The notes under the pieces: model-generated | What the model saw: only the letters and a program-made list of their open reading frames with translations | The model's database searches: none | What the model was told of the DNA's origin: nothing | Position numbers and translations under genes: made by a program | In this document: one piece after another, positions 25,490 to 37,930 of the stretch | How the letters are laid out: each line of letters opens with the position of its first letter | Position numbering within the stretch: the first letter of the stretch is position 1 | Source of the DNA: Patescibacteria group bacterium | Lineage (GTDB): Bacteria; Patescibacteriota; Patescibacteriia; JAHIZJ01 | Length of the DNA: 37,930 bases | NCBI GenBank assembly: GCA_041661625.1 | Contig: JBAZUB010000004.1 | Coordinates: forward strand, 1 to 37,930 | Direction of reading: 5' to 3'

Positions 25490-26216
25490 CCTGCAATTCC
25501 TTTTCCCATGCCGTCTTTATCAGCGCAATCTGTCGGGCCTGCTCTTCGTTGCGCCATAAGGTAAGCCCGGCAAGGCTTTCAACCTCTGCCTCGCGGCTAT
25601 TGATAAACGCTAGGTTCTCATCGGGGTTAGCGCAAAGCATCCCTTGAAGGTGCCTGATAATAACCTCTGGCACTAGCGGGCATATTCCTAGGCCGTCACA
25701 AAGTTCCTTAGTATAACTGTCCTGGCCCCTATGCTTAACTGTTCGCGGATACGCAAAGCCTACTAACTGCGCCTGCTTGCGGCTCCATATTTCCATAGAC
25801 GGGTGCCGCCATGCAAACCAGTTATCATTGAGCCTGTCATCGCCACAGATAAAGCCCCATCCGTTTGACCGCTTCTCAAATTCGTTCAGTAATATCAAGT
25901 CCCAATTGGGAGTAATATAGCGAGCGTCATCGGTAATGATTTGGTAATATTCGTAATCGGGATAGCGCTCAAGGCAGGTGTGATTTAAAACTTCTTGCAT
26001 ACACCTATGTTTATCAACCACATAAAGCATGTTGTAGGTTGATGTATAGTGTCCAATCTTAGATAGGTAATCGCCTAGCTTCGGGTCATCGTTATGGAGA
26101 TAAACAAACATATCTCCATCATCGTCTAGGCCACGGGTTGCATAATATGTATCTAGCATTTGCGGTAATTCGTGTGGGCGGCGAAAGGTAGTGCAAATTG
26201 CGAGCAGGCGCTTCAT
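25467..26216 (-). CDS. GT-A-like glycosyltransferase (paralogue of module 1 of the 18090..19670 protein)
   Basis: 249 aa. LLAICTTFRRPHELPQMLDTYY parallels LLTMCSSHRRPDMLERMMKSW, and QIITDDARY parallels EINDDHVCR. This is the first gene of the operon. Confidence 0.55.
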   Translation of the reverse strand: MKRLLAICTTFRRPHELPQMLDTYYATRGLDDDGDMFVYLHNDDPKLGDYLSKIGHYTSTYNMLYVVDKHRCMQEVLNHTCLERYPDYEYYQIITDDARYITPNWDLILLNEFEKRSNGWGFICGDDRLNDNWFAWRHPSMEIWSRKQAQLVGFAYPRTVKHRGQDSYTKELCDGLGICPLVPEVIIRHLQGMLCANPDENLAFINSREAEVESLAGLTLWRNEEQARQIALIKTAWEKELQGEHSSAL

Positions 26217-26235
26217 GTAACCCCCTGTTGTATTT

Positions 26236-26263
26236 AATATAATCTATAATTTATAGATGTAAA
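26236..26263 (-). promoter_or_regulatory. Sigma70-like promoter of the GT/radical-SAM operon
   Basis: On the minus strand: TTTACA (26263-26258), a 16-nt spacer, then TATATT (26241-26236), followed by GGGGG and ATG 26216. Confidence 0.5.
26242..26258. promoter_or_regulatory. Perfect 17-bp palindrome (operator candidate) filling the promoter spacer
   Basis: ATCTATAA-T-TTATAGAT reads as its own reverse complement. Confidence 0.6.
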
Positions 26264-26453
26264 GAAATTACTTGACTTATTTTTCGCCATCCCTACACCC
26301 CCGCCCTGGTTAAATACGCCTCTGCCCGCGCCCGCAACAATAGCGCCTCCACCTTGCACCGCATCCACCACCGCGCAACCGTGGGCCGGGCGTGATAATG
26401 GCGTGATACGCAGCCCCATAGCCAGTTAAGGAAGCGGAGATAGGGGTGGTATA

Positions 26454-26675
26454 TCATGGCCTATTCGCCTTCACACATGCCGCCCGCGTTGCGGCCCTGT
26501 CCCATTCCCGGTCACGCTCGCGCCAGCATCCACGGCAGAAATTATCCAACACCTTCTGCCCCCATTGCTCGCAATACCTGAAATCGGCAGGCTCACCCTT
26601 GAGACTTGGCGCTATGCCATGCCTGACGCTCGATTGCGCCAATGATGCACGCCGCGCTTGAAATGATTTAATCAC
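26454..26675 (-). CDS. Small Cys-containing hypothetical protein
   Basis: 73 aa (..YCEQWGQKVLDNFCRGCW..). The GTG start overlaps the upstream stop (GTGA). Codon usage looks coding. Confidence 0.4.
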   Translation of the reverse strand: MIKSFQARRASLAQSSVRHGIAPSLKGEPADFRYCEQWGQKVLDNFCRGCWRERDREWDRAATRAACVKANRP

Positions 26676-26851
26676 CGCCGCCTCCGTATTGATTTCTTTT
26701 CTGTTTCAACTAGCTCCATTGCAAATGTTTCGCAAGTAGCACAAGGCTCCATCATCCAACACGAGCAAGCCTTTTCATAAGGGCATTGATACAAATTTGG
26801 ATTAATATCATTTTTGATATAATTTAATTTAGGTTTCACCTCCGCCTCCAT
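26672..26851 (-). CDS. Small Cys-rich hypothetical protein
   Basis: 59 aa from the internal ATG 26851: MEAEVKPKLNYIKNDINPNLYQCPYEKACSCWMMEPCATCETF.. Confidence 0.45.
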   Translation of the reverse strand: MEAEVKPKLNYIKNDINPNLYQCPYEKACSCWMMEPCATCETFAMELVETEKKSIRRRR

Positions 26852-27000
26852 GCTACTTGATGTATGAATATCCCGGCCAGTAATATACACATTACCCGCG
26901 CCGTATCGCCCACGCTCCAATAGTCCGCCGCGATGGATATGACGGCGCCCATAAGGGCAAGCTCTAGGGCGGTTACGATGATGCGGATGGCGGTTGTCAT
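26836..27000 (-). CDS. Small hydrophobic (membrane) protein, below the ORF-track size cut-off
   Basis: 54 aa, MTTAIRIIVTALELALMGAVISIAADYWSVGDTARVMCILLAGIFIHQVAWRRR. Its ATG overlaps the upstream stop (ATGA at 26997-27000). Confidence 0.4.
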   Translation of the reverse strand: MTTAIRIIVTALELALMGAVISIAADYWSVGDTARVMCILLAGIFIHQVAWRRR

Positions 27001-27323
27001 GCCCATACCGCCTCCACGCCGCCGCGCCGTGATTGCAGCGGGCTTATTTGATACCCGGACTTTTTAAGCCCTGCGTTTTTCATCGCCACGCCAAACCAGT
27101 TTTTACTTACCGGCGCTCCAACAGCCTTAGCCTCCGCGCTTGACCGCACCGCCGACATTGCTATCGGCCTTGGCAGGGACCGGATAAGGTCAATCATCGC
27201 CGCCATCCAGCGCCCCTTGTAATCCGCGAAACAATCGAGTTGCGCAGGGTCACGGTTAGGCTTGCGGTTACGGGCTATGATAATCTTTCCATCAGGTGGG
27301 ACATGGATGGATAGGGCGGTCAT
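26997..27323 (-). CDS. Hypothetical protein
   Basis: 108 aa from ATG 27323, with GGAGG 5 nt upstream and an ATGA overlap with the upstream stop. Confidence 0.5.
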   Translation of the reverse strand: MTALSIHVPPDGKIIIARNRKPNRDPAQLDCFADYKGRWMAAMIDLIRSLPRPIAMSAVRSSAEAKAVGAPVSKNWFGVAMKNAGLKKSGYQISPLQSRRGGVEAVWA

Positions 27324-27505
27324 TTCACCCTCCATCTCTTCATGTTCTTGTATTTACCAAGCCGATTACAGCATGGACAATTCATGTTTTCATCTAGAGC
27401 GCAAAATGATTTTTCGTCAACCGGCCTAGCTCCGCACTCGGCATTACCTAGACAGCCGCAACTTTCACATGGAGGGTCATCAAGAATGGAGTATTGCGGT
27501 ATCAT
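27320..27505 (-). CDS. Small Cys-rich hypothetical protein
   Basis: 61 aa from ATG 27505 (GGAGG 5 nt upstream, ATGA overlap): ..PPCESCGCLGNAECG..FCALDENMNCPCCN.. Confidence 0.5.
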   Translation of the reverse strand: MIPQYSILDDPPCESCGCLGNAECGARPVDEKSFCALDENMNCPCCNRLGKYKNMKRWRVK

Positions 27506-27795
27506 TTCACCCTCCACGGCCACGCCATCGGGGTCCATAACCCGCAACGAGCAGCCGTATATTGCATGCTACACTCTTTGCCACAGGTAAAGCAGTCCCG
27601 CGACTGAACCCCACCACGCTCCGCAATCAATCGCGCAATGGCAAGGAGTGAGCCATGATGAAACTTTGAATAGGCTGACGGGTTAATCCGTGCCTTGGCC
27701 GGTATCGACTTATAGCCAAACGCCATCACAATCACCGCCTCAATCGGCATGGCGGCGAGGGCTTCGTGGCTGGTCATGGTGCGGGCGTGGTTCAT
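27502..27795 (-). CDS. Hypothetical protein
   Basis: 97 aa from ATG 27795 (AAGGA 5 nt upstream). A C-terminal CFTCGKEC is present. Confidence 0.45.
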   Translation of the reverse strand: MNHARTMTSHEALAAMPIEAVIVMAFGYKSIPAKARINPSAYSKFHHGSLLAIARLIAERGGVQSRDCFTCGKECSMQYTAARCGLWTPMAWPWRVK

Positions 27796-27821
27796 TGGGT
27801 TCCTTTGGTTACAATGGCCCG

Positions 27822-28115
27822 TTACATGGCCGCCCGTTGCAAAAACTTCCATAGCACAACCTCGTAAATTGTAGCCGGGCGACACCCTCCGCTTTTTTCT
27901 TGGAGAACCCATATTCTCGCCCGGCGTTCTAGCGTAAATGTGAATTTTGTAATGGCATCACTTGCGCTTGTTGTACGGGCGGTCTTCCGCCGAACAGTCC
28001 GGGCGCTCTTTGCCTTTCTCCAGCTCAATCCCTGGCCACACTGAGGACAATCTTTATTGTTAACTCCACGGTGGGGCGGTTCACTCATGTCTTGTTTGCA
28101 TGTTGGACATTTCAT
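27822..28115 (-). CDS. Zinc-ribbon protein
   Basis: 97 aa from ATG 28115 (AAGGAG upstream): MKCPTCKQDMSEPPHRGVNNKDCPQCGQ.. The two CPxC knuckles suggest a zinc ribbon. Confidence 0.5.
   Translation of the reverse strand: MKCPTCKQDMSEPPHRGVNNKDCPQCGQGLSWRKAKSARTVRRKTARTTSASDAITKFTFTLERRARIWVLQEKSGGCRPATIYEVVLWKFLQRAAM
27970..27977. repeat. IR1 left arm (pairs with 28151..28158); weakest pair
   Basis: GTTGTACG against CGTACAAC. Only 8 bp pair, but both arms sit in the same AACAAGC / CCGTT contexts as the other pairs. Confidence 0.3.
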
Positions 28116-28150
28116 TTTAACTCCTTGTCTTTTGTCTTGGGGCAGGCTTG

Positions 28151-28158
28151 CGTACAAC
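28151..28158. repeat. IR1 right arm (pairs with 27970..27977)
   Basis: CGTACAAC lies directly after the stop codon of the 28161..28454 gene. Confidence 0.3.
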
Positions 28159-28160
28159 GG

Positions 28161-28454
28161 TCAGCCCAAGGCCGAAGCCGTGCGAAACTTGCCACACATA
28201 GTATTGTCGTCAACCTTACATGCCCGGTCACACCTCAAACAAGTTTCGCACGGTTTGGGGCCGTCCTCGGCCCGGCCTTGGGCATGTTGTGTGATCGTTG
28301 CCGGGCTTGCGGCGGTCTTAAATACAGGGCAATTTGAAATACAACACGGATAATCAAAGTCTCTTGCCCCACCTTCACCACATTGATCACTTTCGGATGA
28401 ATCGCTAAAATTGTTAATGCAGTATGCTTTAAATACTTCAAATGATACTTCCAT
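28161..28454 (-). CDS. Cys-rich hypothetical protein
   Basis: 97 aa: ..YPCCISNCPVF..PCETCLRCDRACKVDDNTMCGKF. It is preceded by the conserved leader module. Confidence 0.45.
   Translation of the reverse strand: MEVSFEVFKAYCINNFSDSSESDQCGEGGARDFDYPCCISNCPVFKTAASPATITQHAQGRAEDGPKPCETCLRCDRACKVDDNTMCGKFRTASALG
28286..28306. repeat. IR2 left arm (pairs with 28479..28498)
   Basis: GTTGTGTGA-TCG-TTGCCGGGC against the reverse complement of the right arm, GTTGTGTGA-CA-TTGCCGGGC. Confidence 0.6.
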
Positions 28455-28478
28455 CTTTGCCTTTCCGCCGCGCTATTT

Positions 28479-28498
28479 GCCCGGCAATGTCACACAAC
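28479..28498. repeat. IR2 right arm (pairs with 28286..28306)
   Basis: GCCCGGCAATGTCACACAAC, in the leader of the 28161..28454 gene. Confidence 0.6.
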
Positions 28499-28575
28499 GG
28501 TTGCACAAGGCCGAAGCGCGGTACTCCGCGTTTGGGAGAGGGGCCGAACCCCGGCCCCGAACCGGCCTTGTGCTT

Positions 28576-28600
28576 GTTGGCTGAAGTAAATTTGTGGCGC
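28576..28600. repeat. IR3 left arm (pairs with 29203..29227)
   Basis: GTTGGCTGAAGTAAATTTGTGGCGC matches the reverse complement of the right arm, GTTGGCTGAAATAAATTTGTGGCGC, at 24 of 25 positions. Confidence 0.75.
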
Positions 28601-28725
28601 TCTTTTCTTCAATGAATTTCCGTATCCTAGCTCGCATTGAAAGCGTCCACCCTTTTTCCATCAATTCTTTTAAAAGGCACCGACAAGAGGCCCCGATTAT
28701 GGGACATGTGTCCTCGCCTCGGGAA

Positions 28726-28890
28726 TTAGGCATTGTCGGCACCCCTGAATTTCTTTGCCAAAGCAATCAAAATCTGATTATAGAGTAGAGCATCTTTTTT
28801 CTTGTCAGTCATTCCAAGGGCCATGCCAAGCTGAACGGAATTAAGACCGTCAAGTTCTCTCTGAGCTTTTCTTAGTGTTTCTGTTTTCAT
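28726..28890 (-). CDS. Small regulator candidate (Cro/Xre-like?), below the ORF-track size cut-off
   Basis: 54 aa, MKTETLRKAQRELDGLNSVQLGMALGMTDKKKDALLYNQILIALAKKFRGADNA. There is a strong GGAGGA RBS 5 nt upstream and a consensus promoter just upstream. Confidence 0.5.
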   Translation of the reverse strand: MKTETLRKAQRELDGLNSVQLGMALGMTDKKKDALLYNQILIALAKKFRGADNA

Positions 28891-28908
28891 TGTTTCCTCC
28901 TTACCCTT

Positions 28909-28937
28909 AATATAATCAATTGTCAGACGATTGTCAA
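28909..28937 (-). promoter_or_regulatory. Sigma70-like promoter (leftward arm of the divergent switch)
   Basis: On the minus strand: TTGACA (28937-28932), 17 nt, then TATATT (28914-28909), followed by AAGGGTAAGGAGGAAACA ATG. Confidence 0.6.
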
Positions 28938-28964
28938 TACTTTTCTTTGATTTTCTTTATTTTG

Positions 28965-28993
28965 TTGACTTTCGTCCGACTATTCCTTATATT
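28965..28993 (+). promoter_or_regulatory. Sigma70-like promoter (rightward arm of the divergent switch) giving a leaderless mRNA
   Basis: TTGACT (28965-28970), 17 nt, then TATATT (28988-28993). ATG 29000 lies 6 nt after the -10 element. Confidence 0.6.
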
Positions 28994-28999
28994 TAGGGT

Positions 29000-29176
29000 A
29001 TGACAAACAAGAAACCCCACCTGATAACTGACAAAGAGCGGGGCCACCGGCCAGCCCTGAACCCTGGAGAGCCAACCGAGCGCCGTACAATCCGACTTCC
29101 GCAATCCCTTGCCCGAATTTGGGACGCGCTTGGCCCGGATAAAATACGCGATTTTCTGAAAAGCCTTGCATCTTAG
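29000..29176 (+). CDS. Ribbon-helix-helix (CopG/Arc-like) regulator candidate, below the ORF-track size cut-off
   Basis: 58 aa, MTNKKPHLITDKERGHRPALNPGEPTERRTIRLPQSLARIWDALGPDKIRDFLKSLAS. The RRTIRLP strand followed by two helices is RHH-like. The ORF has its own promoter, and the antisense track ORFs here look like translation artefacts. Confidence 0.5.
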   Translation: MTNKKPHLITDKERGHRPALNPGEPTERRTIRLPQSLARIWDALGPDKIRDFLKSLAS

Positions 29177-29202
29177 AGCCCTTGGGCGCGTTTCTTTGTC
29201 TT

Positions 29203-29227
29203 GCGCCACAAATTTATTTCAGCCAAC
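29203..29227. repeat. IR3 right arm (pairs with 28576..28600)
   Basis: GCGCCACAAATTTATTTCAGCCAAC. The pair flanks the Cro-like/RHH switch. Confidence 0.75.
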
Positions 29228-29244
29228 TTGTTGTAACACGAACC

Positions 29245-29448
29245 TTATTGCGTGATATGCTCCACATGCGCCCCTATTGCGAACCTTTGACACGGCCACG
29301 CAATGCAATCGCACTCCCGGTACACATCGGCCCAATCGCAGAATGTCCCGCGTATAACGCGCTGCTTGCACATGCCGTAACCACGGGTCGCGTCAAAGCG
29401 TGGATTGATGCGATGCGGGCAGGTCATGGCTTGCATTGGTTCGCTCAC
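29245..29448 (-). CDS. Small Cys-rich hypothetical protein
   Basis: 67 aa (..TCPHRINPRF..MCKQRVIRGTFCDWADVYRECDCIAWPCQ..). The GTG start has GGGGG 5 nt upstream. Confidence 0.4.
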   Translation of the reverse strand: MSEPMQAMTCPHRINPRFDATRGYGMCKQRVIRGTFCDWADVYRECDCIAWPCQRFAIGAHVEHITQ

Positions 29449-29465
29449 GGCAACCCCCTACAATC

Positions 29466-29744
29466 TCATTTCGTGCCAGTCGATGGCTTTGCCAAAGGCT
29501 TCAGCCTTTCGGACTCTGCGGCCATAGTCTGTAACTCGCGCTCCATTCGCGCCCGGCTTCGTTCCACAGCATCGCCCGCCTTGGCCGGAACCCTGGCCGG
29601 GTCGTCCTCCGATATCCAACAGGTCATCCGCTGTTGTATCTCTTTTGAGTCCAAGCGTTCTAATTTCTTCGTATTCGGCACACAAACCCCCAATGTAAAT
29701 TGATACCAGTAGACAGATAATAAGACAGACACATACTGCGGCAT
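29466..29744 (-). CDS. Hypothetical protein with a hydrophobic N-terminus and a charged helical C-terminus
   Basis: 92 aa from ATG 29744: ..KKLERLDSKEIQQRM..AVERSRARMERELQTMAAESERLKPLAK. The overlapping alternative frame 29458..29760 cannot be excluded. Confidence 0.35.
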   Translation of the reverse strand: MPQYVSVLLSVYWYQFTLGVCVPNTKKLERLDSKEIQQRMTCWISEDDPARVPAKAGDAVERSRARMERELQTMAAESERLKPLAKPSTGTK

Positions 29745-29874
29745 ATTCAATCCCCGTCATGGCGCAAGTCTCCGGTGAATGAAATCCCCCGGCCTACACC
29801 GTGCGGCGCGATGGTCAGGCCGGGTAGATTGAGCCTTGAAGGACCAACCAACAAAAGGTGCCGCAATGAAATCA

Positions 29875-30294
29875 TTACTTGCTACCCTTGATAAACTTCT
29901 TATCCAGTTCCTTAACCACCACCTTTTCGCCCGGCTCAATGAAATGCGCGATAGCTGTCTTAGGGTTAGCCAGCACCGCCGTTTTCTTCCATGCCGGGTT
30001 AAGCGGCAGTACCGCAAGCTGTTCAGGCGTGAACTCAAGCGCGGCCTTAATCGCCTCGCTGTCAAACCTGTCCTTGTCATCCTTGGCGATATACATCTTA
30101 GCCGTATCACTCAGGGATATTTCGCGGATGTTATTCTCACGAAAATACTTGATGATGGCCGCATCGTGCGCGTCCCTGGCCTCGCGTATCTTCTTTGCCG
30201 CAACCTCAAGCTGTGCGCGGAACACAAGGATATCAGCCTCAGACTCAACCGATATCTCAGGGACAGGCGTAAGGTCAATCTTGACGATATTCAT
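29875..30294 (-). CDS. Hypothetical early protein
   Basis: 139-aa ORF directly downstream of the 30297..30791 gene. No family was recognised. Confidence 0.5.
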   Translation of the reverse strand: MNIVKIDLTPVPEISVESEADILVFRAQLEVAAKKIREARDAHDAAIIKYFRENNIREISLSDTAKMYIAKDDKDRFDSEAIKAALEFTPEQLAVLPLNPAWKKTAVLANPKTAIAHFIEPGEKVVVKELDKKFIKGSK

Positions 30295-30296
30295 GT

Positions 30297-30791
30297 TTAG
30301 AATGGGGTAGTAGTGAAGGGGTCTTTGCCTTCATATAGCGCGTCGAGATTGATTGTCAACGGAACATACGCTGCCATGATTTCCTCAGCAACCGGACGCG
30401 GAGGCATTGGGTTGATTGCGTATTCTGTATTCATGCCGCTGCCGGTGCGGGTGACCTTGATATCATAATTGAAAGGCGCGCCCCATTCCTTATCTTCAGC
30501 GAGGCGCTGGATAGCCTGCTGGATTGTCTGCTGTGTGATTTCAATAATCTGAACCTTGGACGCTCCGTAATTCCAGACAACAAATGCCCAGAAATGTTTG
30601 ATGGCCTTGGCCGGGTCAATCGAATGTTCGGGCTTAGCGTTCATGTGAAAGCGGACGGGCTTTTTGTTATCCCAATCCAGCCATCCGATGATAGGCTTGG
30701 AGAGGATACGAAACTTGTTTTCCCCATCCTGCAAGCGCATGTACTTGCTATCGGTAGGGACTTTGTACTCATCAGGCAGGAAATCATTCAT
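30297..30791 (-). CDS. Conserved phage early protein, possibly ssDNA-binding
   Basis: 164 aa with RBS GGAGA. The pattern FRILSKPIIGWLDW..KPVRF..KHFWAFVVWNY..VQIIEITQQTIQQAI..WGAPFNYDIKVTRTG and the C-terminal ..DPFTTTPF recall phage SSB-like proteins. This rests on weak recollection only. Confidence 0.3.
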   Translation of the reverse strand: MNDFLPDEYKVPTDSKYMRLQDGENKFRILSKPIIGWLDWDNKKPVRFHMNAKPEHSIDPAKAIKHFWAFVVWNYGASKVQIIEITQQTIQQAIQRLAEDKEWGAPFNYDIKVTRTGSGMNTEYAINPMPPRPVAEEIMAAYVPLTINLDALYEGKDPFTTTPF

Positions 30792-30809
30792 TGTTCAGTC
30801 TCCTTTGAT

Positions 30810-31100
30810 TTAGTTAGGTATCCCATCGCCGCTATTATTGGCGATATGTTCGATTTGCTCAGGCTCTGCAGGTGTAGGGGCCGGGGCGGGCGCTGATAAC
30901 TCCTGCGCCTTTTCCTTGGCCAGCCCATCCATCAACCGGCACACCTCCATAATGGCGTCAATGGCAACCTGGCATGTCTCCGCAGCTTTCGGCCTACCGG
31001 TGCGGATGAAATGCGAGGCCAGTTCATCATAACGCATTACTGGGGCCGTGGCCTCATTGCGCACGATGTGGGCCAGGATGCCGTAATCTATGTCAGCCAT
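30810..31100 (-). CDS. Hypothetical protein
   Basis: 96-aa ORF with RBS GAGGGGG and an 8-nt overlap with the upstream gene. Confidence 0.5.
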   Translation of the reverse strand: MADIDYGILAHIVRNEATAPVMRYDELASHFIRTGRPKAAETCQVAIDAIMEVCRLMDGLAKEKAQELSAPAPAPTPAEPEQIEHIANNSGDGIPN

Positions 31101-31326
31101 TGGCTACCCCCTCGCTAGGTATGGTTTTGGCGTTATCCTCAATCCTTGACCCCTTGTAGCGCGTCCCACGGGCAGGGCCGGGGCGCTTCCGGTCAGGATA
31201 TGGCGTGTTAGGGTCAATCATTGTGACCGTCCCGAAAACATACGGGATGCGGCCCGCCTTGATAAGCTGCCGGACGCGGACCTCGGACACCCCGTTAGCC
31301 GCCGCATATTCCTTGATGGTTACCAT
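31093..31326 (-). CDS. Helix-turn-helix DNA-binding protein (Xis/AlpA/MerR-like HTH)
   Basis: 77 aa. MVTIKEYAAANGVSEVRVRQLIKAGRIPY is a typical short HTH. The gene has its own promoter. Confidence 0.5.
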   Translation of the reverse strand: MVTIKEYAAANGVSEVRVRQLIKAGRIPYVFGTVTMIDPNTPYPDRKRPGPARGTRYKGSRIEDNAKTIPSEGVANG

Positions 31327-31349
31327 AGTTTCCTTTCATTTCCTTTTAT

Positions 31350-31377
31350 AAGATAACTTATTATTTGGGAAAGTCAA
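31350..31377 (-). promoter_or_regulatory. Sigma70-like promoter upstream of the HTH gene
   Basis: On the minus strand: TTGACT (31377-31372), 16 nt, then TATCTT (31355-31350). Confidence 0.45.
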
Positions 31378-31386
31378 TACCTTTTC

Positions 31387-31752
31387 TCAATTTATTTTCG
31401 GTTCATCCGCTGCCGTGAAAACCTGTTTGCGGGTATTGGCCTTGATGTTCAGGTCATCAAACCACGGTTGCCCACGCCGTATTACCATCCAGTCCAAAAA
31501 CATGTGTGGATATTTGTGAGCATAAAACATGTGGTCCCCGTTACACAAACACACTCCGTTTGGCGGATATGTTCTAACCGATTTCAGGGACCGGCTGAAA
31601 ATGTGGTGTGCCGCCAATCCCCCTGGCCCCTTGCCGCAACGCTCACACCGCAACCCCGCCCGCAACTTGACCTCAGATGACCAAGCCTTATCCGCGACCG
31701 CCTGCCGGTATTTGCGCAGCGCCCGCCTATCCGCCGCATCCGTGCGCCTCAT
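31387..31752 (-). CDS. NinG/HNH-like nuclease candidate
   Basis: 121 aa from ATG 31752 (ATGA overlap): ..AWSSEVKLRAGLRCERCGK..LAAHHIFSRS..NGVCLCNGDH.. Confidence 0.45.
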   Translation of the reverse strand: MRRTDAADRRALRKYRQAVADKAWSSEVKLRAGLRCERCGKGPGGLAAHHIFSRSLKSVRTYPPNGVCLCNGDHMFYAHKYPHMFLDWMVIRRGQPWFDDLNIKANTRKQVFTAADEPKIN

Positions 31753-31976
31753 CGCGCAACCCCCGCGTACGCGCCCACCGGGAACGCGCCCCCGTACAAG
31801 CTCGATGTCAGGCCATGCACAAACGAGGGGCACCGGAAGGACACCGGGGCTAAAGGGCAGTACGCCGACTCGTGGCAGTTCTCACATTGGCGATAGCTTG
31901 CGTCAAGGTGTATCTTGGTTGCGCCCGCGCCGGTTTGATATGTCTCAACAGATGATTGACCATGCCAGCCGCCCAT
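31749..31976 (-). CDS. Small Cys-rich hypothetical protein
   Basis: 75 aa from ATG 31976, which lies 1 nt after the upstream TAA. The sequence contains ..YRQCENCHESAYCP..FRCP.. and its stop overlaps the next ATG. Confidence 0.4.
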   Translation of the reverse strand: MGGWHGQSSVETYQTGAGATKIHLDASYRQCENCHESAYCPLAPVSFRCPSFVHGLTSSLYGGAFPVGAYAGVAR

Positions 31977-31977
31977 G

Positions 31978-32208
31978 TTACCGCCCCTCCCGTAGCGCCG
32001 TGAAATATTCATCCTTGGCTATGCGATACTCCGCGTCAAGCCGTGAGCAATTAACCCGCGCCTTTTCCAGCCCGTCCTTGAGCGTAAGCAACTCGCGCTT
32101 GCGTTCGTTGATGGCAATCTCGACAACAGCCTTGGCCTCTAGCGCGGCTTGCTTCTCATGTTCAAGGCGGTGCATCTGTTCTTGTAGGTCGATGGATGAC
32201 GATGACAT
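31978..32208 (-). CDS. Coiled-coil hypothetical protein
   Basis: 76 aa with RBS AAGGAG: ..LQEQMHRLEHEKQAALEAKAVVEIAINERKRELLTLKDGLEKA.. Confidence 0.5.
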   Translation of the reverse strand: MSSSSIDLQEQMHRLEHEKQAALEAKAVVEIAINERKRELLTLKDGLEKARVNCSRLDAEYRIAKDEYFTALREGR

Positions 32209-32227
32209 GGGGACTCCTTAATTATGG

Positions 32228-32986
32228 TTACGGGGTGTCCAGTAGGTTAAGTTGTTCTGGTGGCTGCGGCTTGTTATATGCTGTTTCGCGGCTGCCTTTT
32301 GATTTCGGCGCGCTTTCTTCTCCGAATAGATTTCCCTGGGTTTGTTCCGTTATTCTTCGGGTTGCTTTTATCTGCCATTCTTCCGAAAGTTCAAAGGCTA
32401 TAAAATCCTTACCGAGAGTCCTGCAGCATATTGGCACAGTTCCGGAACCGCAGAACGGATCAACTACTAATTCGCAGGGCTGGAGACCGAGAAGCCAGTT
32501 GATGAGGGCAGGCGGTTTTTCGGCGGGATGGCCCGTTGGTTTTATTGAAGACCACGGAAATCTTTGTATATCATAAACTCCACGGTCAACAACGGCGTAT
32601 TCCGGATTGCAAATCAAAGCCACCAATTCATAGGACGGTCGCAAACCACGCGGACCGCCAGGCCCTATCCACTGCTTATCCCAAACAAGAAGAGATTCAA
32701 TTTGTTGACCAATTTCTAAAGTGGCCTTCATCACGGTTGGAATGGTTCGCCAATTCAAGAACGTCCACATTGCACCCGTGGGCTTTAATATTCTAAAAAC
32801 CTCCCGATACCAAGCCGCAAACCAATAAGAGGCGTTGGAAATATCAGCCCACGGATTTAATTTGCCAGCACCGCTACTGGCGGTTGTAAAAAGATACGGC
32901 GGGTCTGCTATTACGAGGTCAACAGACATAGTTTTAATCCGTTGTAATCCGGTCAGGCAATCTTCAAGGTGTATTTTATTTAGCAT
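32228..32986 (-). CDS. DNA methyltransferase, beta-class N6A/N4C family (DPPY type, probably N6-adenine)
   Basis: 252 aa. DLVIADPPY is motif IV, HPAEKP is present, and DPFCGSGT (motif I) lies near the C-terminus. This is the beta-class motif order. Confidence 0.85.
   Translation of the reverse strand: MLNKIHLEDCLTGLQRIKTMSVDLVIADPPYLFTTASSGAGKLNPWADISNASYWFAAWYREVFRILKPTGAMWTFLNWRTIPTVMKATLEIGQQIESLLVWDKQWIGPGGPRGLRPSYELVALICNPEYAVVDRGVYDIQRFPWSSIKPTGHPAEKPPALINWLLGLQPCELVVDPFCGSGTVPICCRTLGKDFIAFELSEEWQIKATRRITEQTQGNLFGEESAPKSKGSRETAYNKPQPPEQLNLLDTP
32273..32292. repeat. IR4 left arm (pairs with 33308..33327)
   Basis: GTTATATGC-TG-TTTCGCGGC against the reverse complement of the right arm, GTTATATGC-AA-TTTCGCGGC (18 of 20 positions). 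Confidence 0.7.
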
Positions 32987-33269
32987 TTTTTACTTGCTGC
33001 CCTTTGATTTCGTTTTCAATCAGAATGTTTACTAAGTGAATAAATTCTTCCGCCTCTGCTTGGTTTCGACCAATTGGTAGCCCATCAAATCCGTTTCCTA
33101 TTAATTCTGGCTGGTCTTTGTGTGACCAATGTACCACCTCGAAATATTTTAAAAAACTTTTTACTCTTGATAACTGCGACCTGTGGAACCTATCGTGGCA
33201 GTTGCTGCATTCGTATAGTTCTAGATACTCATACAGCCCAGACTCTTGTTCGGTTTCTTCTGCGTCCAT
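32976..33269 (-). CDS. Hypothetical protein (CxxC..H)
   Basis: 97 aa (..YECSNCHDRFH..), preceded by the conserved leader module. Confidence 0.45.
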   Translation of the reverse strand: MDAEETEQESGLYEYLELYECSNCHDRFHRSQLSRVKSFLKYFEVVHWSHKDQPELIGNGFDGLPIGRNQAEAEEFIHLVNILIENEIKGQQVKNAK

Positions 33270-33307
33270 TCTTTTCCTCTTTGCCTTTAGCGCGCCGTCT
33301 TTGTCTT

Positions 33308-33327
33308 GCCGCGAAATTGCATATAAC
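33308..33327. repeat. IR4 right arm (pairs with 32273..32292)
   Basis: GCCGCGAAATTGCATATAAC, in the leader of the 32976..33269 gene. Confidence 0.7.
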
Positions 33328-33329
33328 GG

Positions 33330-33539
33330 TTAGGCAACCCGAAGGCCGTCAGGCTTTGGGTCGGAGCCTGCGGAAGCAGGCGTAGCCGGGTTGCCGATTG
33401 TTGTAAGAAGTAAAACCGCCCGCTCCTTTTTCTTTAAATATTGTCTGATTCTTTTCCATGTATTTTTACAACGGCTCTTTAAATAGGTCGTTCCTGCAAT
33501 GCAACACACTCTTATAATTGGACACTCTCCACAATTCAT
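33330..33539 (-). CDS. Small Cys-rich hypothetical protein
   Basis: 69 aa from ATG 33539 (ATGA overlap): MNCGECPIIRVCCIAGTTYLKSRCKN.. Confidence 0.4.
   Translation of the reverse strand: MNCGECPIIRVCCIAGTTYLKSRCKNTWKRIRQYLKKKERAVLLLTTIGNPATPASAGSDPKPDGLRVA
33400..33423. repeat. IR5 left arm (pairs with 33825..33848)
   Basis: GTTGTAAGAAGTAAAACCGCCCGC matches the reverse complement of the right arm, GTTGTGTGAAATAAAACCGCCCGC, at 21 of 24 positions. Confidence 0.65.
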
Positions 33540-33790
33540 ACCCTCAGCTCCCATTTATCTACATTGCTAAAATGGATACAGCCGTGACAAGTCAAGCAAT
33601 CTTTTGTTTCGTATTCTCTTTGGTCGAACCAACGACAATCCGGGCACGATTTTGGAATATACAGGTTTTCTTTTATTATATCCAAAGCGGCCCTATCCAT
33701 TACATACAGTTCATCTTTATCTCCATAGGCTACAAGTTTAGCGTGAATCGAACCTTCAAAGACTTCTACTGCCTCTTGTAATGTTTTCAT
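33536..33790 (-). CDS. Small Cys-rich hypothetical protein
   Basis: 84 aa with RBS GGAGG (..SCPDCRWF..CLTCHGCIHF..), preceded by the conserved leader module. Confidence 0.5.
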   Translation of the reverse strand: MKTLQEAVEVFEGSIHAKLVAYGDKDELYVMDRAALDIIKENLYIPKSCPDCRWFDQREYETKDCLTCHGCIHFSNVDKWELRV

Positions 33791-33824
33791 TTATTTCCTC
33801 CGAGGGCTTGCCCGCGTTTGTCTT

Positions 33825-33848
33825 GCGGGCGGTTTTATTTCACACAAC
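33825..33848. repeat. IR5 right arm (pairs with 33400..33423)
   Basis: GCGGGCGGTTTTATTTCACACAAC, in the leader of the 33536..33790 gene. Confidence 0.65.
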
Positions 33849-33921
33849 GGCTGCCGCACCTGACGGACAATCCATAATCAATTTGCTCCGGCAGGTTCGC
33901 CCGAAGGCCCGTCCTCGGGCT

Positions 33922-34376: not shown

Positions 34377-34730
34377 TCAACGCACTTTTGCGACTCTCCA
34401 TAATTTTTTTAAGGAGCAAAAGAACGCCCGAAGTTTTGCACCAATCCAATAAATAAATTTAAGTACAAAATTTACGGGCTGCGTGTTGTTGGGCGCTGAT
34501 GCTTGCTCTGCCTTTGCGGGCGGCTCTTTCTTAATTGGAGCGGTAGTGGTAATTGTGGTAAACGCCGATTCAGGGCAGCGATGATGATATTTATTTATGT
34601 GGCGCGTACCATAACCGCCAATTCTATCGGGACACCAACAGCCACCGCAAGGCTCTGTTTTCTTTGTTCCACAAACCGGACAGGCAACGCGCCCATCAGA
34701 ATCAAGCATATCATATTCTTCTTTTAGCAT
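34377..34730 (-). CDS. Zinc-binding N-terminal / hydrophobic C-terminal hypothetical protein
   Basis: 117 aa from ATG 34730 (leader GGAAAGGCAAA): ..ACPVCGTKKTEPCGGCWCP..HHRCP.. followed by ..FVLKFIYWIGAKLRAFF. Confidence 0.45.
   Translation of the reverse strand: MLKEEYDMLDSDGRVACPVCGTKKTEPCGGCWCPDRIGGYGTRHINKYHHRCPESAFTTITTTAPIKKEPPAKAEQASAPNNTQPVNFVLKFIYWIGAKLRAFFCSLKKLWRVAKVR
34488..34508. repeat. IR7 left arm (pairs with 34759..34779)
   Basis: GTTGGGCGC-TG-ATGCTTGCTC against the reverse complement of the right arm, GTTGGGCGC-AA-ATGCTTGCTC (19 of 21 positions). Confidence 0.7.
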
Positions 34731-34859: not shown

Positions 34860-35714
34860 TTAAGTGTCCAGACCCTCGCCAGCAGGACGGTCTTCTCTTG
34901 GCACGTAATATCCACCAAGGGCCTGCCGTATCTCTTCCGGTGTTGCAACCGGTCCATTGTCTATATCGTTAGGGTTTTGGTATCGCGGGCCATAGGATGC
35001 CTGAGGTGGTGGTGGCGGCGGCTCGTCTTCCCATCGGCGCTGATTGATGTAGGTTGCAGGCATTGGGATAAATTGGCCGTGTTCTTTGGTCCACTGTTCG
35101 GACTTGACCTGCCACTGAAGGGCCGATATGATATTCAATACGGTTTCAACCGGGCATTTAATTTTCAGCCATGCCTTTTCTGCGGCTCCCTTCCCGGTCT
35201 TTTTTGGATATGCTTTCCAAAACTGTTCAAACGGCAACCCCCCCTTGGGGGGTGTGGGGGGTATTATCTTTTCTTTTCTTTCCTCTACTCTACTCTCCTT
35301 TACTCTACTTTCCCCCATTGTTTGGGGATTGTTTGGGGATTGTTCGCCTAACAACTCTTTTTTGCGATAATTAATGGCATATTCTCGCTCTTTGGAAACT
35401 TCAGCTATTCTTTTTCGTACTCCGTTTGAAGTATAGACACCCCTTGAAATTTCGACTAAAAGGCCAAGCTGGATACAATCGGCAATTATCTTGGTTTGTT
35501 GTTCGGGAGATAGTCGGGCATTGTTAGCCGATAAATCCCCAAACAATCCGTTTAGGTTGACTTCTCCATGTTCTGTTTTATAGGCAGACTGCCAAAATTT
35601 CAAAATCCATACAAGGCCATTATTACCATGCAGTGTTTCTAATGCTTGAATTTGCTCGTTAAACGTGACATCCAGCGGAAAATAATCAAGACCTATTTTT
35701 TTAGAGCGTGCCAT
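34860..35714 (-). CDS. Replication initiation / replisome-organiser protein (DUF4373-like N-terminal domain)
   Basis: 284 aa. The N-terminus KKIGLDYFPLDVTFNEQIQALETLHGNNGLVWILKFW and the central FEQFWKAYPKKTGKGAAEKAWLK are patterns recalled from phage replication initiators. This is the first gene of the leftward block. Confidence 0.65.
   Translation of the reverse strand: MARSKKIGLDYFPLDVTFNEQIQALETLHGNNGLVWILKFWQSAYKTEHGEVNLNGLFGDLSANNARLSPEQQTKIIADCIQLGLLVEISRGVYTSNGVRKRIAEVSKEREYAINYRKKELLGEQSPNNPQTMGESRVKESRVEERKEKIIPPTPPKGGLPFEQFWKAYPKKTGKGAAEKAWLKIKCPVETVLNIISALQWQVKSEQWTKEHGQFIPMPATYINQRRWEDEPPPPPPQASYGPRYQNPNDIDNGPVATPEEIRQALGGYYVPREDRPAGEGLDT
35238..35344. repeat. Iteron-like repeats plus a G/C-tract palindrome inside the replication gene (ori candidate)
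   Basis: Three elements are present: the tract C7-TT-G6-TGT-G6 (35238-35261), TACTC/TACTCTAC repeats (35283-35310), and the tandem 11-mer ATTGTTTGGGG x2 with a partial third copy (35317-35344). Confidence 0.5.
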
Positions 35715-35833
35715 AAATGCCTTAAAAAAGGGTTATCCTGGGGGGATCGGCAAGAAACACCCAGGACAAGGACCGAGGCTTGCGCTTACGGTTAACCCAA
35801 CGTTACAAAGGAGGATTGCCGATCCATGCCCTT

Positions 35834-35862
35834 AATATACTATTCTCGATTTCGGAGAGCAA
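35834..35862 (-). promoter_or_regulatory. Sigma70-like promoter for the leftward early block
   Basis: On the minus strand: TTGCTC (35862-35857), 17 nt, then TATATT (35839-35834), followed by AAGGGC and an ATG at 35827. Confidence 0.45.
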
Positions 35863-35905
35863 ATCTTATTTTCGTAAACCGTGAGAATTATTAAATGGCA
35901 TGGAT

Positions 35906-35934
35906 TTGCAAAACTAGCCCAATTAGATTATATT
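35906..35934 (+). promoter_or_regulatory. Sigma70-like rightward promoter
   Basis: TTGCAA (35906-35911), 17 nt, then TATATT (35929-35934). An ATG lies at 35941, 6 nt downstream, and opens a 37-codon ORF that ends at 36054. Confidence 0.4.
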
Positions 35935-36011
35935 ACCCCCATGTGGTATACATACCGCCAACAGGTCGGCCATCACGGGCGCATCGCCTTAGTGGTGGCC
36001 TTCCGCTTTTG

Positions 36012-36528: not shown

Positions 36529-37930
36529 ATGCGGGCCGTCTACCTGGCCTCTCCGTATTTCTTAGGGCGTGAGGTGTTAGGCTATACCAAGTTCTGTGAG
36601 ACACAGCTTGAATGGTCTGAGTACGCGACCACCCTATTCAATCCCCGCGCTCCTAAGCGTACATGGTCACTTGTCCTGTCACCACGCGAAACCCTGAAGT
36701 CTACCTACTGGACCGTGACCTATGCCATTTGGCTACTGCTTAACAACCCTGACCTGACCATCCTGATTGTATCGGAGACGATAACCAACGCCGAAGCCTT
36801 CCTGCGTGAGATACGCGCCAAGCTGCAGAGCGAGCAATTCGTCAAAGTGTTTGGCAATATCGTAAACAAGAACCTGAACCGGGCGGACGCGCTAGACCTG
36901 ACAACCCGCAAGAACCACAGCAAGGAAGCTAACCTTGAGGCGGCAGGGCTAGGCAAGGCCATCACTGGCAGGCACTATGACGTGGTTATCGCGGATGATA
37001 TAGCTGGCGTCCAGGACAGGGACAGCGAGGCAAAGCGGGCCGTCACTATGGCCTTCCTGTCTGACATCGTGGACGTGCTTAAGAAGGAATGTGGCTTTCT
37101 CCAAATCATCGGAACGCGTTGGCATAGGGAAGACATCTATGCCCACATCAAGGATAAGCTGGCCCCTGACATGGAGCGGAAGGCTCTAGGCAAGTTCAAC
37201 ATTTGGGAGCGCCCGGCCCACGCGCCGGACGGCTCCCTTAACTTCCCCCGCCTGCTGCCCGAAGCCCGACTTCAGGAGCTTAAGACGGTCAAGCAGGGCA
37301 AGGACGGGATAGATATCACCACCTTCATGGCTCAATACGAACTCCTGCCCCTTGACCCGGCCACCCAAATATTCAAGACGCTTCACTTCGCCGACCATAA
37401 GGGGCTGAAATATTCAAAGCTCTCCCAATGGACTGACCCGGCCATGAAGGTTGAAAAGGACGCGGACTTCAGCGCCATCGTTGTCATCGGCAAGATAGCA
37501 GAGGGTGAGCATCATGGCAAGGAAATGGTCTTGTACGCCTCCCTTGATAAGCGCTCACCGACCAAGGTAGTGGCTGACCATAACCGCATCTATCGCATGG
37601 TACGGGAACAAAACCCGGACGTAGAATATCAGGTTGCTATGGAAGAGAACGGCTTTCAGGGGCTTAAGGATTTCGCCAAGGCCATGTCCCTACAGGACAG
37701 CGGTGAGGGCGTGCCGACCCGTGGGATAGCCAATACCGAAAATAAGGATTGCCGCATCAAGTCGCTTGAGCCTGCCGTTACGGGTGGCTTTGTTTTGTTC
37801 CGTGAGGATTGGGCGGACGCACCGGAGAACTACAAGATATTAATAGAGCAAATTCGCAATTATCCGCAATCGAAAAAAGATGGACCTGACGCACTTCAGG
37901 GCGCTCGAAAGCGGCTTAACAAAAGCGGAG
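36529..37930 (+). CDS. terL: Terminase large subunit (runs off the window end and continues at 1..141)
   Basis: Frame 1 is open from ATG 36529 to the window end, checked by hand over 36529-37020. Motifs include the P-loop-like LVLSPRETLKST, the Walker-B-like HYDVVIADDIAG, GTRWH, and the nuclease-like ..DPAMKVEKDADFSAIVVIG. The alternative TTG starts at 36457 and 36478 were not excluded. Confidence 0.85.
   Translation, partial: MRAVYLASPYFLGREVLGYTKFCETQLEWSEYATTLFNPRAPKRTWSLVLSPRETLKSTYWTVTYAIWLLLNNPDLTILIVSETITNAEAFLREIRAKLQSEQFVKVFGNIVNKNLNRADALDLTTRKNHSKEANLEAAGLGKAITGRHYDVVIADDIAGVQDRDSEAKRAVTMAFLSDIVDVLKKECGFLQIIGTRWHREDIYAHIKDKLAPDMERKALGKFNIWERPAHAPDGSLNFPRLLPEARLQELKTVKQGKDGIDITTFMAQYELLPLDPATQIFKTLHFADHKGLKYSKLSQWTDPAMKVEKDADFSAIVVIGKIAEGEHHGKEMVLYASLDKRSPTKVVADHNRIYRMVREQNPDVEYQVAMEENGFQGLKDFAKAMSLQDSGEGVPTRGIANTENKDCRIKSLEPAVTGGFVLFREDWADAPENYKILIEQIRNYPQSKKDGPDALQGARKRLNKSG
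37804..37930. repeat. Terminal direct repeat, an exact copy of 1..127
   Basis: Compared base by base with 1-127. Confidence 0.95.

Follow-up and report, generated by a model that had tools for sequence, protein, structure and literature searches.

The 25-nt inverted repeat IR3 flanks a small divergent gene cluster in a contig of 37,930 nt (JBAZUB010000004.1; the whole of this stretch is referred to as the window), which was binned in a 1.36-Mb groundwater metagenome-assembled genome (MAG) of 25 contigs belonging to the Patescibacteria. The window is circularly closed, with bases 1–127 recurring at 37804–37930, and because it encodes portal, major head, tape-measure, large terminase and replication-initiator proteins it is regarded as a 37.8-kb tailed phage. 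The bacterium represented by the MAG is called the host in the following.

The IR3 locus and its genes

The arms of IR3, at 28576–28600 (plus strand) and 29203–29227 (as the reverse complement), are complementary at 24 of 25 positions and have 602 nt between them. A search of the window allowing three mismatches returned these two copies only, and none of 100 dinucleotide shuffles contained any match. The one-mismatch inverted repeat around a regulatory unit that an earlier annotation of this DNA (the original prediction) had described is thus real. It had also been called the longest and best-matched repeat of its kind, of which the second part stands and the first does not, as the pair 35326–35354/35521–35549 extends over 29 nt (26/29 complementary). 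Both divergent promoters and the 54- and 58-aa open reading frames (ORFs) placed in the interval were recovered by promoter scoring and in the ORF list (Table 1), but this inventory was incomplete, since an 86-aa ORF also reaches into the interval.

The proteins encoded between the arms were compared to known families and folds. The 54-aa protein had no Pfam or PHROG match, a word search gave no homologue, and its AlphaFold2 model consists of three helices (predicted local distance difference test score, pLDDT, 87.6). For the 58-aa protein, 12 homologues were found (best 60% identity, E 6.5e-13), which argue that it belongs to a real protein family, and the model has a strand-helix-helix topology (pLDDT 80). 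The latter topology is RHH-like (ribbon-helix-helix). Foldseek found no significant match for either model, so the names "Cro-like" and "RHH" that the two ORFs had been given are used provisionally.

A family of like units in the phage and the host chromosome

IR3 is not unique in kind: six further pairs of the same design were found in the window, at 27970/28158 (weak, 8 nt), 28286/28498, 32273/33327, 33400/33848, 33937/34374 and 34488/34779. Inverted repeat pairs of at least 16 nt within 1.5 kb number six in the window and zero to one in shuffled sequences. One or two co-oriented early ORFs on the minus strand are located inside each arm pair. The pairs have a common outer core of 9 nt (GTTG.. 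on the 5' side, ..CAAC on the 3' side), and every one of them continues with a mismatch at position 10–11 from the core and then 9–14 nt of pair-specific match. GC-rich junction structures of 72–127 nt, bounded by AAC...GTT, separate the 3' arm of each unit from the 5' arm of the unit that follows, each comprising a small asymmetric bubble, a 6–11-bp stem and a variable tip, often of two hairpins; the stems vary between copies yet keep pairing. The units fall into two arrays, with C1–C4 in the first and C5, the unit framed by IR3, heading the second. The inner hairpin between C5 and C6 folds as single-stranded DNA with −36.8 kcal/mol (z = −4.35).

Just inside its 5' arm, each phage unit carries a small hairpin with an A-rich loop (AAGACAAAG), a Shine-Dalgarno (SD)-like tract and an ATG, and a search for promoter-like sites placed none in any of these leaders. 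In C5 the leader hairpin and the T-rich arm are situated directly behind the stop codon of the 58-aa ORF and are terminator-like on the plus strand, and the sister leader at 33808–33832 was likewise scored as terminator-like on that strand; we infer a terminator role for the leader hairpin and arm at 29177–29227 with respect to the 58-aa gene. The original prediction was to fail if the arms were merely a generic leader element, and this applies in part, as the right arm belongs to the generic leader and marks the cassette 5' end. An antisense 63-aa ORF behind the leader ATG (28980–29171, minus strand) was judged spurious because the 58-aa ORF on the opposite strand has real homologues. Upstream of the 5' arm of C5 there is no hairpin but only an R''-like TTACAAC two bases off; a partner search with this box (29230–29244) found none, and it looks like a primary or secondary insertion point.

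Judged by their sequences, the phage cassettes use the same design as integron-like arrays in the host chromosome. Host sites, taken from a region behind hisS and two further regions, have the form ACATCA..ATAAC / hairpin / AAAC-GTTRTRTGACAT, and the phage junction sites the form ACATCACACAAC / hairpin / AACC-GTTGTGTGA(A/C)AT. Nine host cassettes begin, after GTT, with ~25 nt that are reverse-complementary to the final ~25 nt preceding the cassette's own AAC, and the same two-base mismatch at positions 10–11 (5' CA or AA versus TG) is found in phage and host. This own-end rule was scored over positions 12–24 (13 nt) in 16 cassettes, seven from the phage and nine from the host. Cassette ends matched their own partner at 6–13 of 13 positions (IR3 at all 13), compared to a mean of 4.6/13 for non-own partners and 2–5/13 for the neighbour across the same hairpin, and the own partner was best or tied best in 15 of the 16.

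A covariance model was built from the nine host sites only (17 pairs, seven of them with compensatory changes) and applied, with filters off, to the entire window. The top three matches were cassette junctions, each covered at full length on the minus strand, with E values of 0.08–0.17, and a fourth junction ranked seventh. Each E value is only ~0.1, and what counts is that the three top matches fall on previously defined sites. With the same model, 29 sites were identified in the host, where they cluster in arrays, and each of the six other family genomes also contained sites. The earlier suggestion that the arms delimit a mobile regulatory cassette is supported, in that they follow the host-like own-end rule and the left arm abuts a folded site that is among the three best, if low-scoring, matches of the host-derived model.

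Compared to the remainder of the MAG, the phage contig is enriched in the site motifs. They are absent from 19 related-phage loci (17 IMG/VR relatives and two found via an SSB-like protein and the RHH homologue), and this distribution fits acquisition in this host lineage. In the 19 loci, inverted-repeat brackets did not exceed the shuffle level and AAC-hairpin-GTT sites were not found. Neither the exact arm nor the leader pattern had a match in IMG/VR, and the leader pattern gave six matches in metagenome and genome collections, all in unrelated sequence lacking the other site motifs. A distantly related locus, L034, encodes a homologue of the 58-aa protein behind the same leaderless promoter layout and with similar operator-like repeats, and has no arms; the regulatory module of C5 is thus older than its cassette frame. 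The repeated operator-like motif CCGAC(G/T)AT is common to L034:1290–1385 and window positions 28905–29000, and the gene leftward of the divergent promoter region in L034 encodes an HNH protein.

Proposed split hairpin sites and a model for cassette movement

Circular sites were reconstituted by placing the hairpin that follows a cassette between this cassette's own 3' and 5' ends, and were folded with DNA parameters. They fold as one continuous long hairpin, which for C5 reaches −55.1 kcal/mol on the coding (top) strand and −57.9 kcal/mol on the opposite (bottom) strand, compared to −31.7 and −34.0 kcal/mol in the array form. The bottom strand was the more stable one in four of five cassettes because the conserved mismatch is G·T on this strand and A·C on the coding strand, which argues against selection on mRNA. 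A preference for the bottom strand has been described for the attC sites of integrons (PMC9892861), and the phage cassettes agree with it. We consider it probable (roughly 0.7) that the IR3 arms are halves of one long hairpin recombination site that was split by the integration of a circular cassette at GTT.

According to this model, C5 (29227 to 28576, minus strand) would be one gene cassette in a phage-borne integron-like array. In its free circular form the arms would pair with each other and, together with the GC-rich hairpin after the left arm, give one folded recombination site, in which a small bubble separates the long outer stem, with its GTT/AAC core, from an inner stem that ends in a variable tip. 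If strands were exchanged at the invariant GTT or next to it, the outer stem would be divided, its 5' half leading the cassette and its 3' half closing it, so that the integrated product would resemble an inverted repeat around cargo. That cargo would be a self-contained module in which the 58-aa gene and the 54-aa/86-aa gene pair flank back-to-back promoters, and is unusual for a cassette since such a promoter-regulator module is self-sufficient. After loss of C5, ...TTACAACAA would abut GTTGTGTGACAT at 28498 in the empty site. The phage probably does not encode the enzyme, for which a small Xer/IntI-like tyrosine recombinase of the host, acting on the folded bottom strand (the plus strand of the window), would be the likeliest candidate. 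The comparisons show the cassette design and its identity with that of the host arrays, from which we infer a circular intermediate, the point of crossover, the enzyme and the strand used. The crossover point of integron cassettes is itself said to have first been deduced from own-end complementarity, by Hall and Stokes.

A small Xer/IntI-like recombinase beside an array is present in the host but not on the phage itself, where searches of the 37.8-kb contig for recombinases and transposases found none. The host enzyme (285 aa, host contig C2:3980–4837) scored 210 bits against both XerA/integron-integrase and IntI models and only ~180 bits against XerC/XerD models, and is divergent from an array starting ~70 bp away, near C2:3910. 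The two recombinases of the host remain under the TIGR02249 cut-off (210 vs 265 bits), and the match to this model is in two stretches, with model positions 181–237 skipped. The host R' box TTATGTGACAT resembles the XerD arm of bacterial dif (TTATGTTAAAT), and the short host sites, as folded duplexes, presumably look like an 11 + 6 + 11 dif-like core. The host arrays also hold an ORF-less unit of ~160 nt in at least six copies (Table 1), made up of a 34-nt palindromic mini-cassette (GTTGTGGCGA...TCGCCACAAC) and a long GC-rich hairpin, each copy being followed by a different cassette start.

Several observations weigh against the split-site model. The phage sites reach 8–17 bits with the host model, compared to 30–82 bits for sites of the host and 28–82 bits for those of the host family, and the inner (L-box) stems of the phage are unrelated in sequence to the host L-box, so recognition of the phage sites by the host enzyme is not assured. 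The extrahelical bases of classical attC sites were not seen, the L stems of the phage being perfect, and an IntI with the characteristic insertion was found in neither phage nor host. In tblastn searches of the phage cassette ORFs against the host no clear homologue was detected, and the association of phage and host rests on binning and cassette-site similarity. No joint indicating inversion, a circle, a deletion or an empty site was found at the arms in assembled contigs, nor was any phage cassette seen in two contexts. Furthermore, two host cassettes (G000 C3:111433–112204 and C1:156745–157318) share ~90-nt 5' and 3' ends (93% and 90% identity), which are mutual inverted repeats over ~70 nt, and yet differ in cargo and inner hairpin; a strict model in which the hairpin travels with the cassette does not fit this pair. 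Matches of the phage junctions to the host in blastn-short searches were at chance level.

Table 1 Features of the phage window, with the ORF-less units of the host arrays
Feature	Position	Strand	Remarks
C5 5' arm, extended R' box, begins GTTGGCTGAAAT	29203–29227	−	positions 12–24 match reverse complement of own 3' arm 13/13
C5 3' arm, extended R'' box, ends ...CAGCCAAC	28576–28600	−	left edge of covariance-model match 28587–28487
C5/C6 junction inner hairpin	28499–28575	−	3-nt/4-nt bubble, 11-bp stem, two terminal hairpins (three-way junction)
Leader hairpin, GGCGC stem, loop AAGACAAAG...	29177–29202	−	just within C5 5' arm
Leftward sigma-70-like promoter	28909–28937	−	TTGACA, 17 nt, TATATT; 11/12 to consensus
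Rightward sigma-70-like promoter	28965–28993	+	10/12 to consensus; ATG 6–7 nt past −10 hexamer (leaderless layout)
54-aa ORF ("Cro-like")	28726–28890	−	predicted three-helix protein; helix-turn-helix (HTH) not confirmed
58-aa ORF (RHH-like)	29000–29176	+	strand-helix-helix topology, conserved ERGHRP motif
86-aa Cys-containing ORF	28473–28733	−	overlaps 54-aa stop; reads through 3' arm and junction hairpin
Covariance-model match	33948–33837	−	16.7 bits
Covariance-model match	28587–28487	−	16.4 bits; contains IR3 left arm
Covariance-model match	33411–33316	−	15.3 bits
Array 1, cassettes C1–C4	32273–34779	−	arms 34759–79/34488–508, 34354–74/33937–57, 33825–48/33400–23, 33308–27/32273–92
Cassette C6	28286–28498	−	arms 28479–28498 and 28286–28306, one indel
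C6/C7 junction inner hairpin	28159–28285	−	by folding; host-derived model match 7.9 bits
C4 cargo, N6_N4 DNA methyltransferase	32228–32929	−	Pfam E 2.4e-21
Stretches with divergent contigs in run X1	33300–33390, 34508–34613, 35526–35633, 35830–35968		one covers C3/C4 junction hairpin
ORF-less host unit copies	G000 C1:148235–148392, 154792–154950, 155799–155956, 156587–156745; C2:3753–3910, 1092–1250

Alternative explanations and known systems

The arms could instead act in the leftward early transcript, which would be polycistronic, with those of each cistron pairing into a 21–25-bp stem so that the mRNA is cut into stable monocistronic messages or its translation is modulated. Stems of this length are within the substrate range of RNase III, the arms bracket cistrons and are found just 5' of SD/ATG leaders, the region is strongly structured, and the pair-specific complementarity looks like covariation. 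This explanation nevertheless seems unlikely to us: the mismatch is A·C on the mRNA-sense strand and G·T on the antisense strand, which folds better in the four cassettes noted above; the same design recurs in host chromosomal arrays beside a recombinase; and the strong promoter of C5 is situated between the IR3 arms, so that the main C5 transcript carries one arm only. RNA-level effects of the stems may coexist with a role at the DNA level.

Alternatively, the units could be small non-autonomous transposon-like elements with terminal inverted repeats, or frames swapped by homologous recombination, the mover being something other than a tyrosine recombinase. The two host cassettes with common ends, different cargo and different adjoining hairpins would be in keeping with this, as would a variant of the phage from a second groundwater study (run X2), in which the same phage is present in fragments at ~3x. 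One fragment of this run matches the window rightwards from 29157 and is unrelated to its left, diverging 70 nt inside the C5 5' end. This hints at a C5 frame (arm, leader and the first five codons past the leader ATG) followed by different cargo, and the C5 leader and its ATG (29171) may head another minus-strand ORF in the variant phage; together with the host pair, it hints at cargo turnover within conserved frames. Transposition or frame swapping is still quite unlikely, as searches of the phage contig yielded no transposase, the subterminal part of the arms differs from pair to pair instead of being common to the family, and the units are strictly co-oriented, with AAC/GTT-boxed hairpins between them and, in the host, an adjoining recombinase gene.

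Recombination between the arms could also flip 28601–29202 and redirect the leftward promoter, which was the toggle raised in the original prediction. A near-perfect 25-nt repeat around a bidirectional promoter unit invites this idea, and such recombination is physically possible. We regard it as very unlikely, however: searches of the phage contig found no invertase or other recombinase, the six sister pairs surround plain ORFs, and cassette ends, as a family-wide design, fully account for the repeat. The inverted orientation that had been proposed as a check was also sought in assembled contigs, where a contig of the source run spans 26000–33900 without differences, in one orientation and with no strand-changing joint. 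This is weak evidence against frequent inversion and is silent on rare events, because assembled contigs drop rare forms. An inverted repeat around a promoter unit is no evidence for a flip switch when a split hairpin site leaves the same trace. Hardly credible, finally, is the proposal that the arms are paired operators bound by the 54- or 58-aa protein for DNA looping: they are symmetric about the regulatory unit, but arms of the same design flank regulator-free cassettes in the phage and in the host chromosome, and candidate operators of other sequence lie between the promoters, similar repeats occurring in the same position in the arm-less L034.

The split-site model was compared to known systems. 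Classical attC sites pair RYYYAAC with GTTRRRY and have an unpaired spacer, an L-box stem and a variable tip, in 57–141 nt. The C5/C6 site fits this layout, with AGCCAAC ... GTTGTGT (one deviation each), a bubble of AAG vs AACC, an 11-bp stem and a two-hairpin tip. As in integrons, the phage units are co-oriented, mostly promoterless small ORFs, each followed by an imperfect palindrome bounded by ...AAC and GTT..., and a cassette start is complementary to its own site and not to its neighbour's. In contrast to integrons, the split outer stem is 20–25 bp long (up to about 70–90 in the host) instead of 7, strand asymmetry comes from the A·C/G·T mismatch of the outer stem 10–11 nt from the core, neither phage nor host has an IntI-type integrase with the extra domain, each phage cassette carries a conserved A-rich leader, and one cassette carries a whole two-promoter module.

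Clusters of attC sites without an integrase (CALINs), including cassettes for N6_N4 methylases, have been reported in phages (Qi et al. 2023, PMC9892861). With these the phage arrays have in common that the strand opposite the ORFs folds better, that a DNA methylase is among the cargo, and that no integrase was found on the phage. The Xer-type arrays of Patescibacteria, for which a literature search on integron-like arrays in this group found no paper, have the same boxes, bubble asymmetry (1–3 nt vs 4 nt), own-end rule and mismatch; unlike them, the phage sites have GC-rich inner parts with three-way junctions and score weakly with the host model, and they are borne by a virus on which no recombinase was found. 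The PeSL cassettes of T4-type phages, reportedly described by Arbiol et al. in 2010, are said to be direct repeats with a promoter and a terminator stem-loop that recombine homologously. They too are repeated modules between genes, flank non-essential small early ORFs of plastic genome regions and have been proposed to mediate shuffling via circles, whereas the leaders of the present phage lack a promoter-like site and its cassette ends are pair-specific inverted repeats with AAC/GTT boxes. Invertible switches (Hin/Gin/Cin, FimB/E and shufflons) likewise have inverted repeats of 14–30 bp around a promoter-bearing segment; here, in contrast, no invertase gene and no second orientation in contigs were found, and the repeats belong to a seven-member cassette family.

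New here are a phage of a candidate phyla radiation (CPR) host with the site grammar of that host, a split stem of 20–25 bp that gives rise to conspicuous inverted repeats, and a promoter-regulator module as cargo. A broader and more tentative proposal, to which we give distinctly less than even odds, is that the early region of a CPR virus consists in part of integron-like cassettes, a promoter-regulator module among them, which a host Xer-type recombinase would insert, remove and exchange on folded single strands, so that one recombination system would serve phage and host. If the cassette reading holds, the mosaic early regions of CPR phages would derive from site-specific cassette exchange and not from illegitimate recombination, an uncultured phage could be tied to its host through a common recombination-site grammar, and integron-like gene capture would extend to an IntI-less system whose split stems are long and whose cargo includes an entire regulatory module.

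Additional observations concern the junctions and the remainder of the contig. Four minus-strand ORFs (28161–28454, 33330–33539, 34377–34730 and 28473–28733) read through their own 3' arm and the whole junction hairpin, and three of them (stops at 28161, 33330 and 34377) end at TGA/TAA directly before the CCGTT of the next cassette; these tails are probably incidental, because the reading frame through the hairpins is not conserved. A hammerhead-type reading of the three-way junction was rejected by eye, as the junction strands lack the conserved core, and an Rfam scan of the whole window (E up to 1) returned a single chance long non-coding RNA match, leaving the three-way junctions without a ribozyme or known RNA. 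Searches of the window for tRNA and transfer-messenger RNA (tmRNA) genes gave none.

In blastn, the window had no match among 50,697 phage records, exact-protein look-ups of the flanking ORFs gave matches in the source sample only, and a query of six other host-family genomes with the SSB-like protein found no phage relative. Low-depth contigs (run X1) with 14–18 differences per ~100 nt show that the source sample also contains a related phage that is distinct from this one. A 77-aa ORF (31093–31326, minus strand) has a weak match to HTH_17 (excisionase/MerR-type; E 0.0011), under the Pfam cut-off. The 29-nt inverted repeat mentioned above is located in the replication-initiator gene, which also contains tandem GGGGATTGTT repeats at 35238–35344, and the two features together likely constitute the replication origin.

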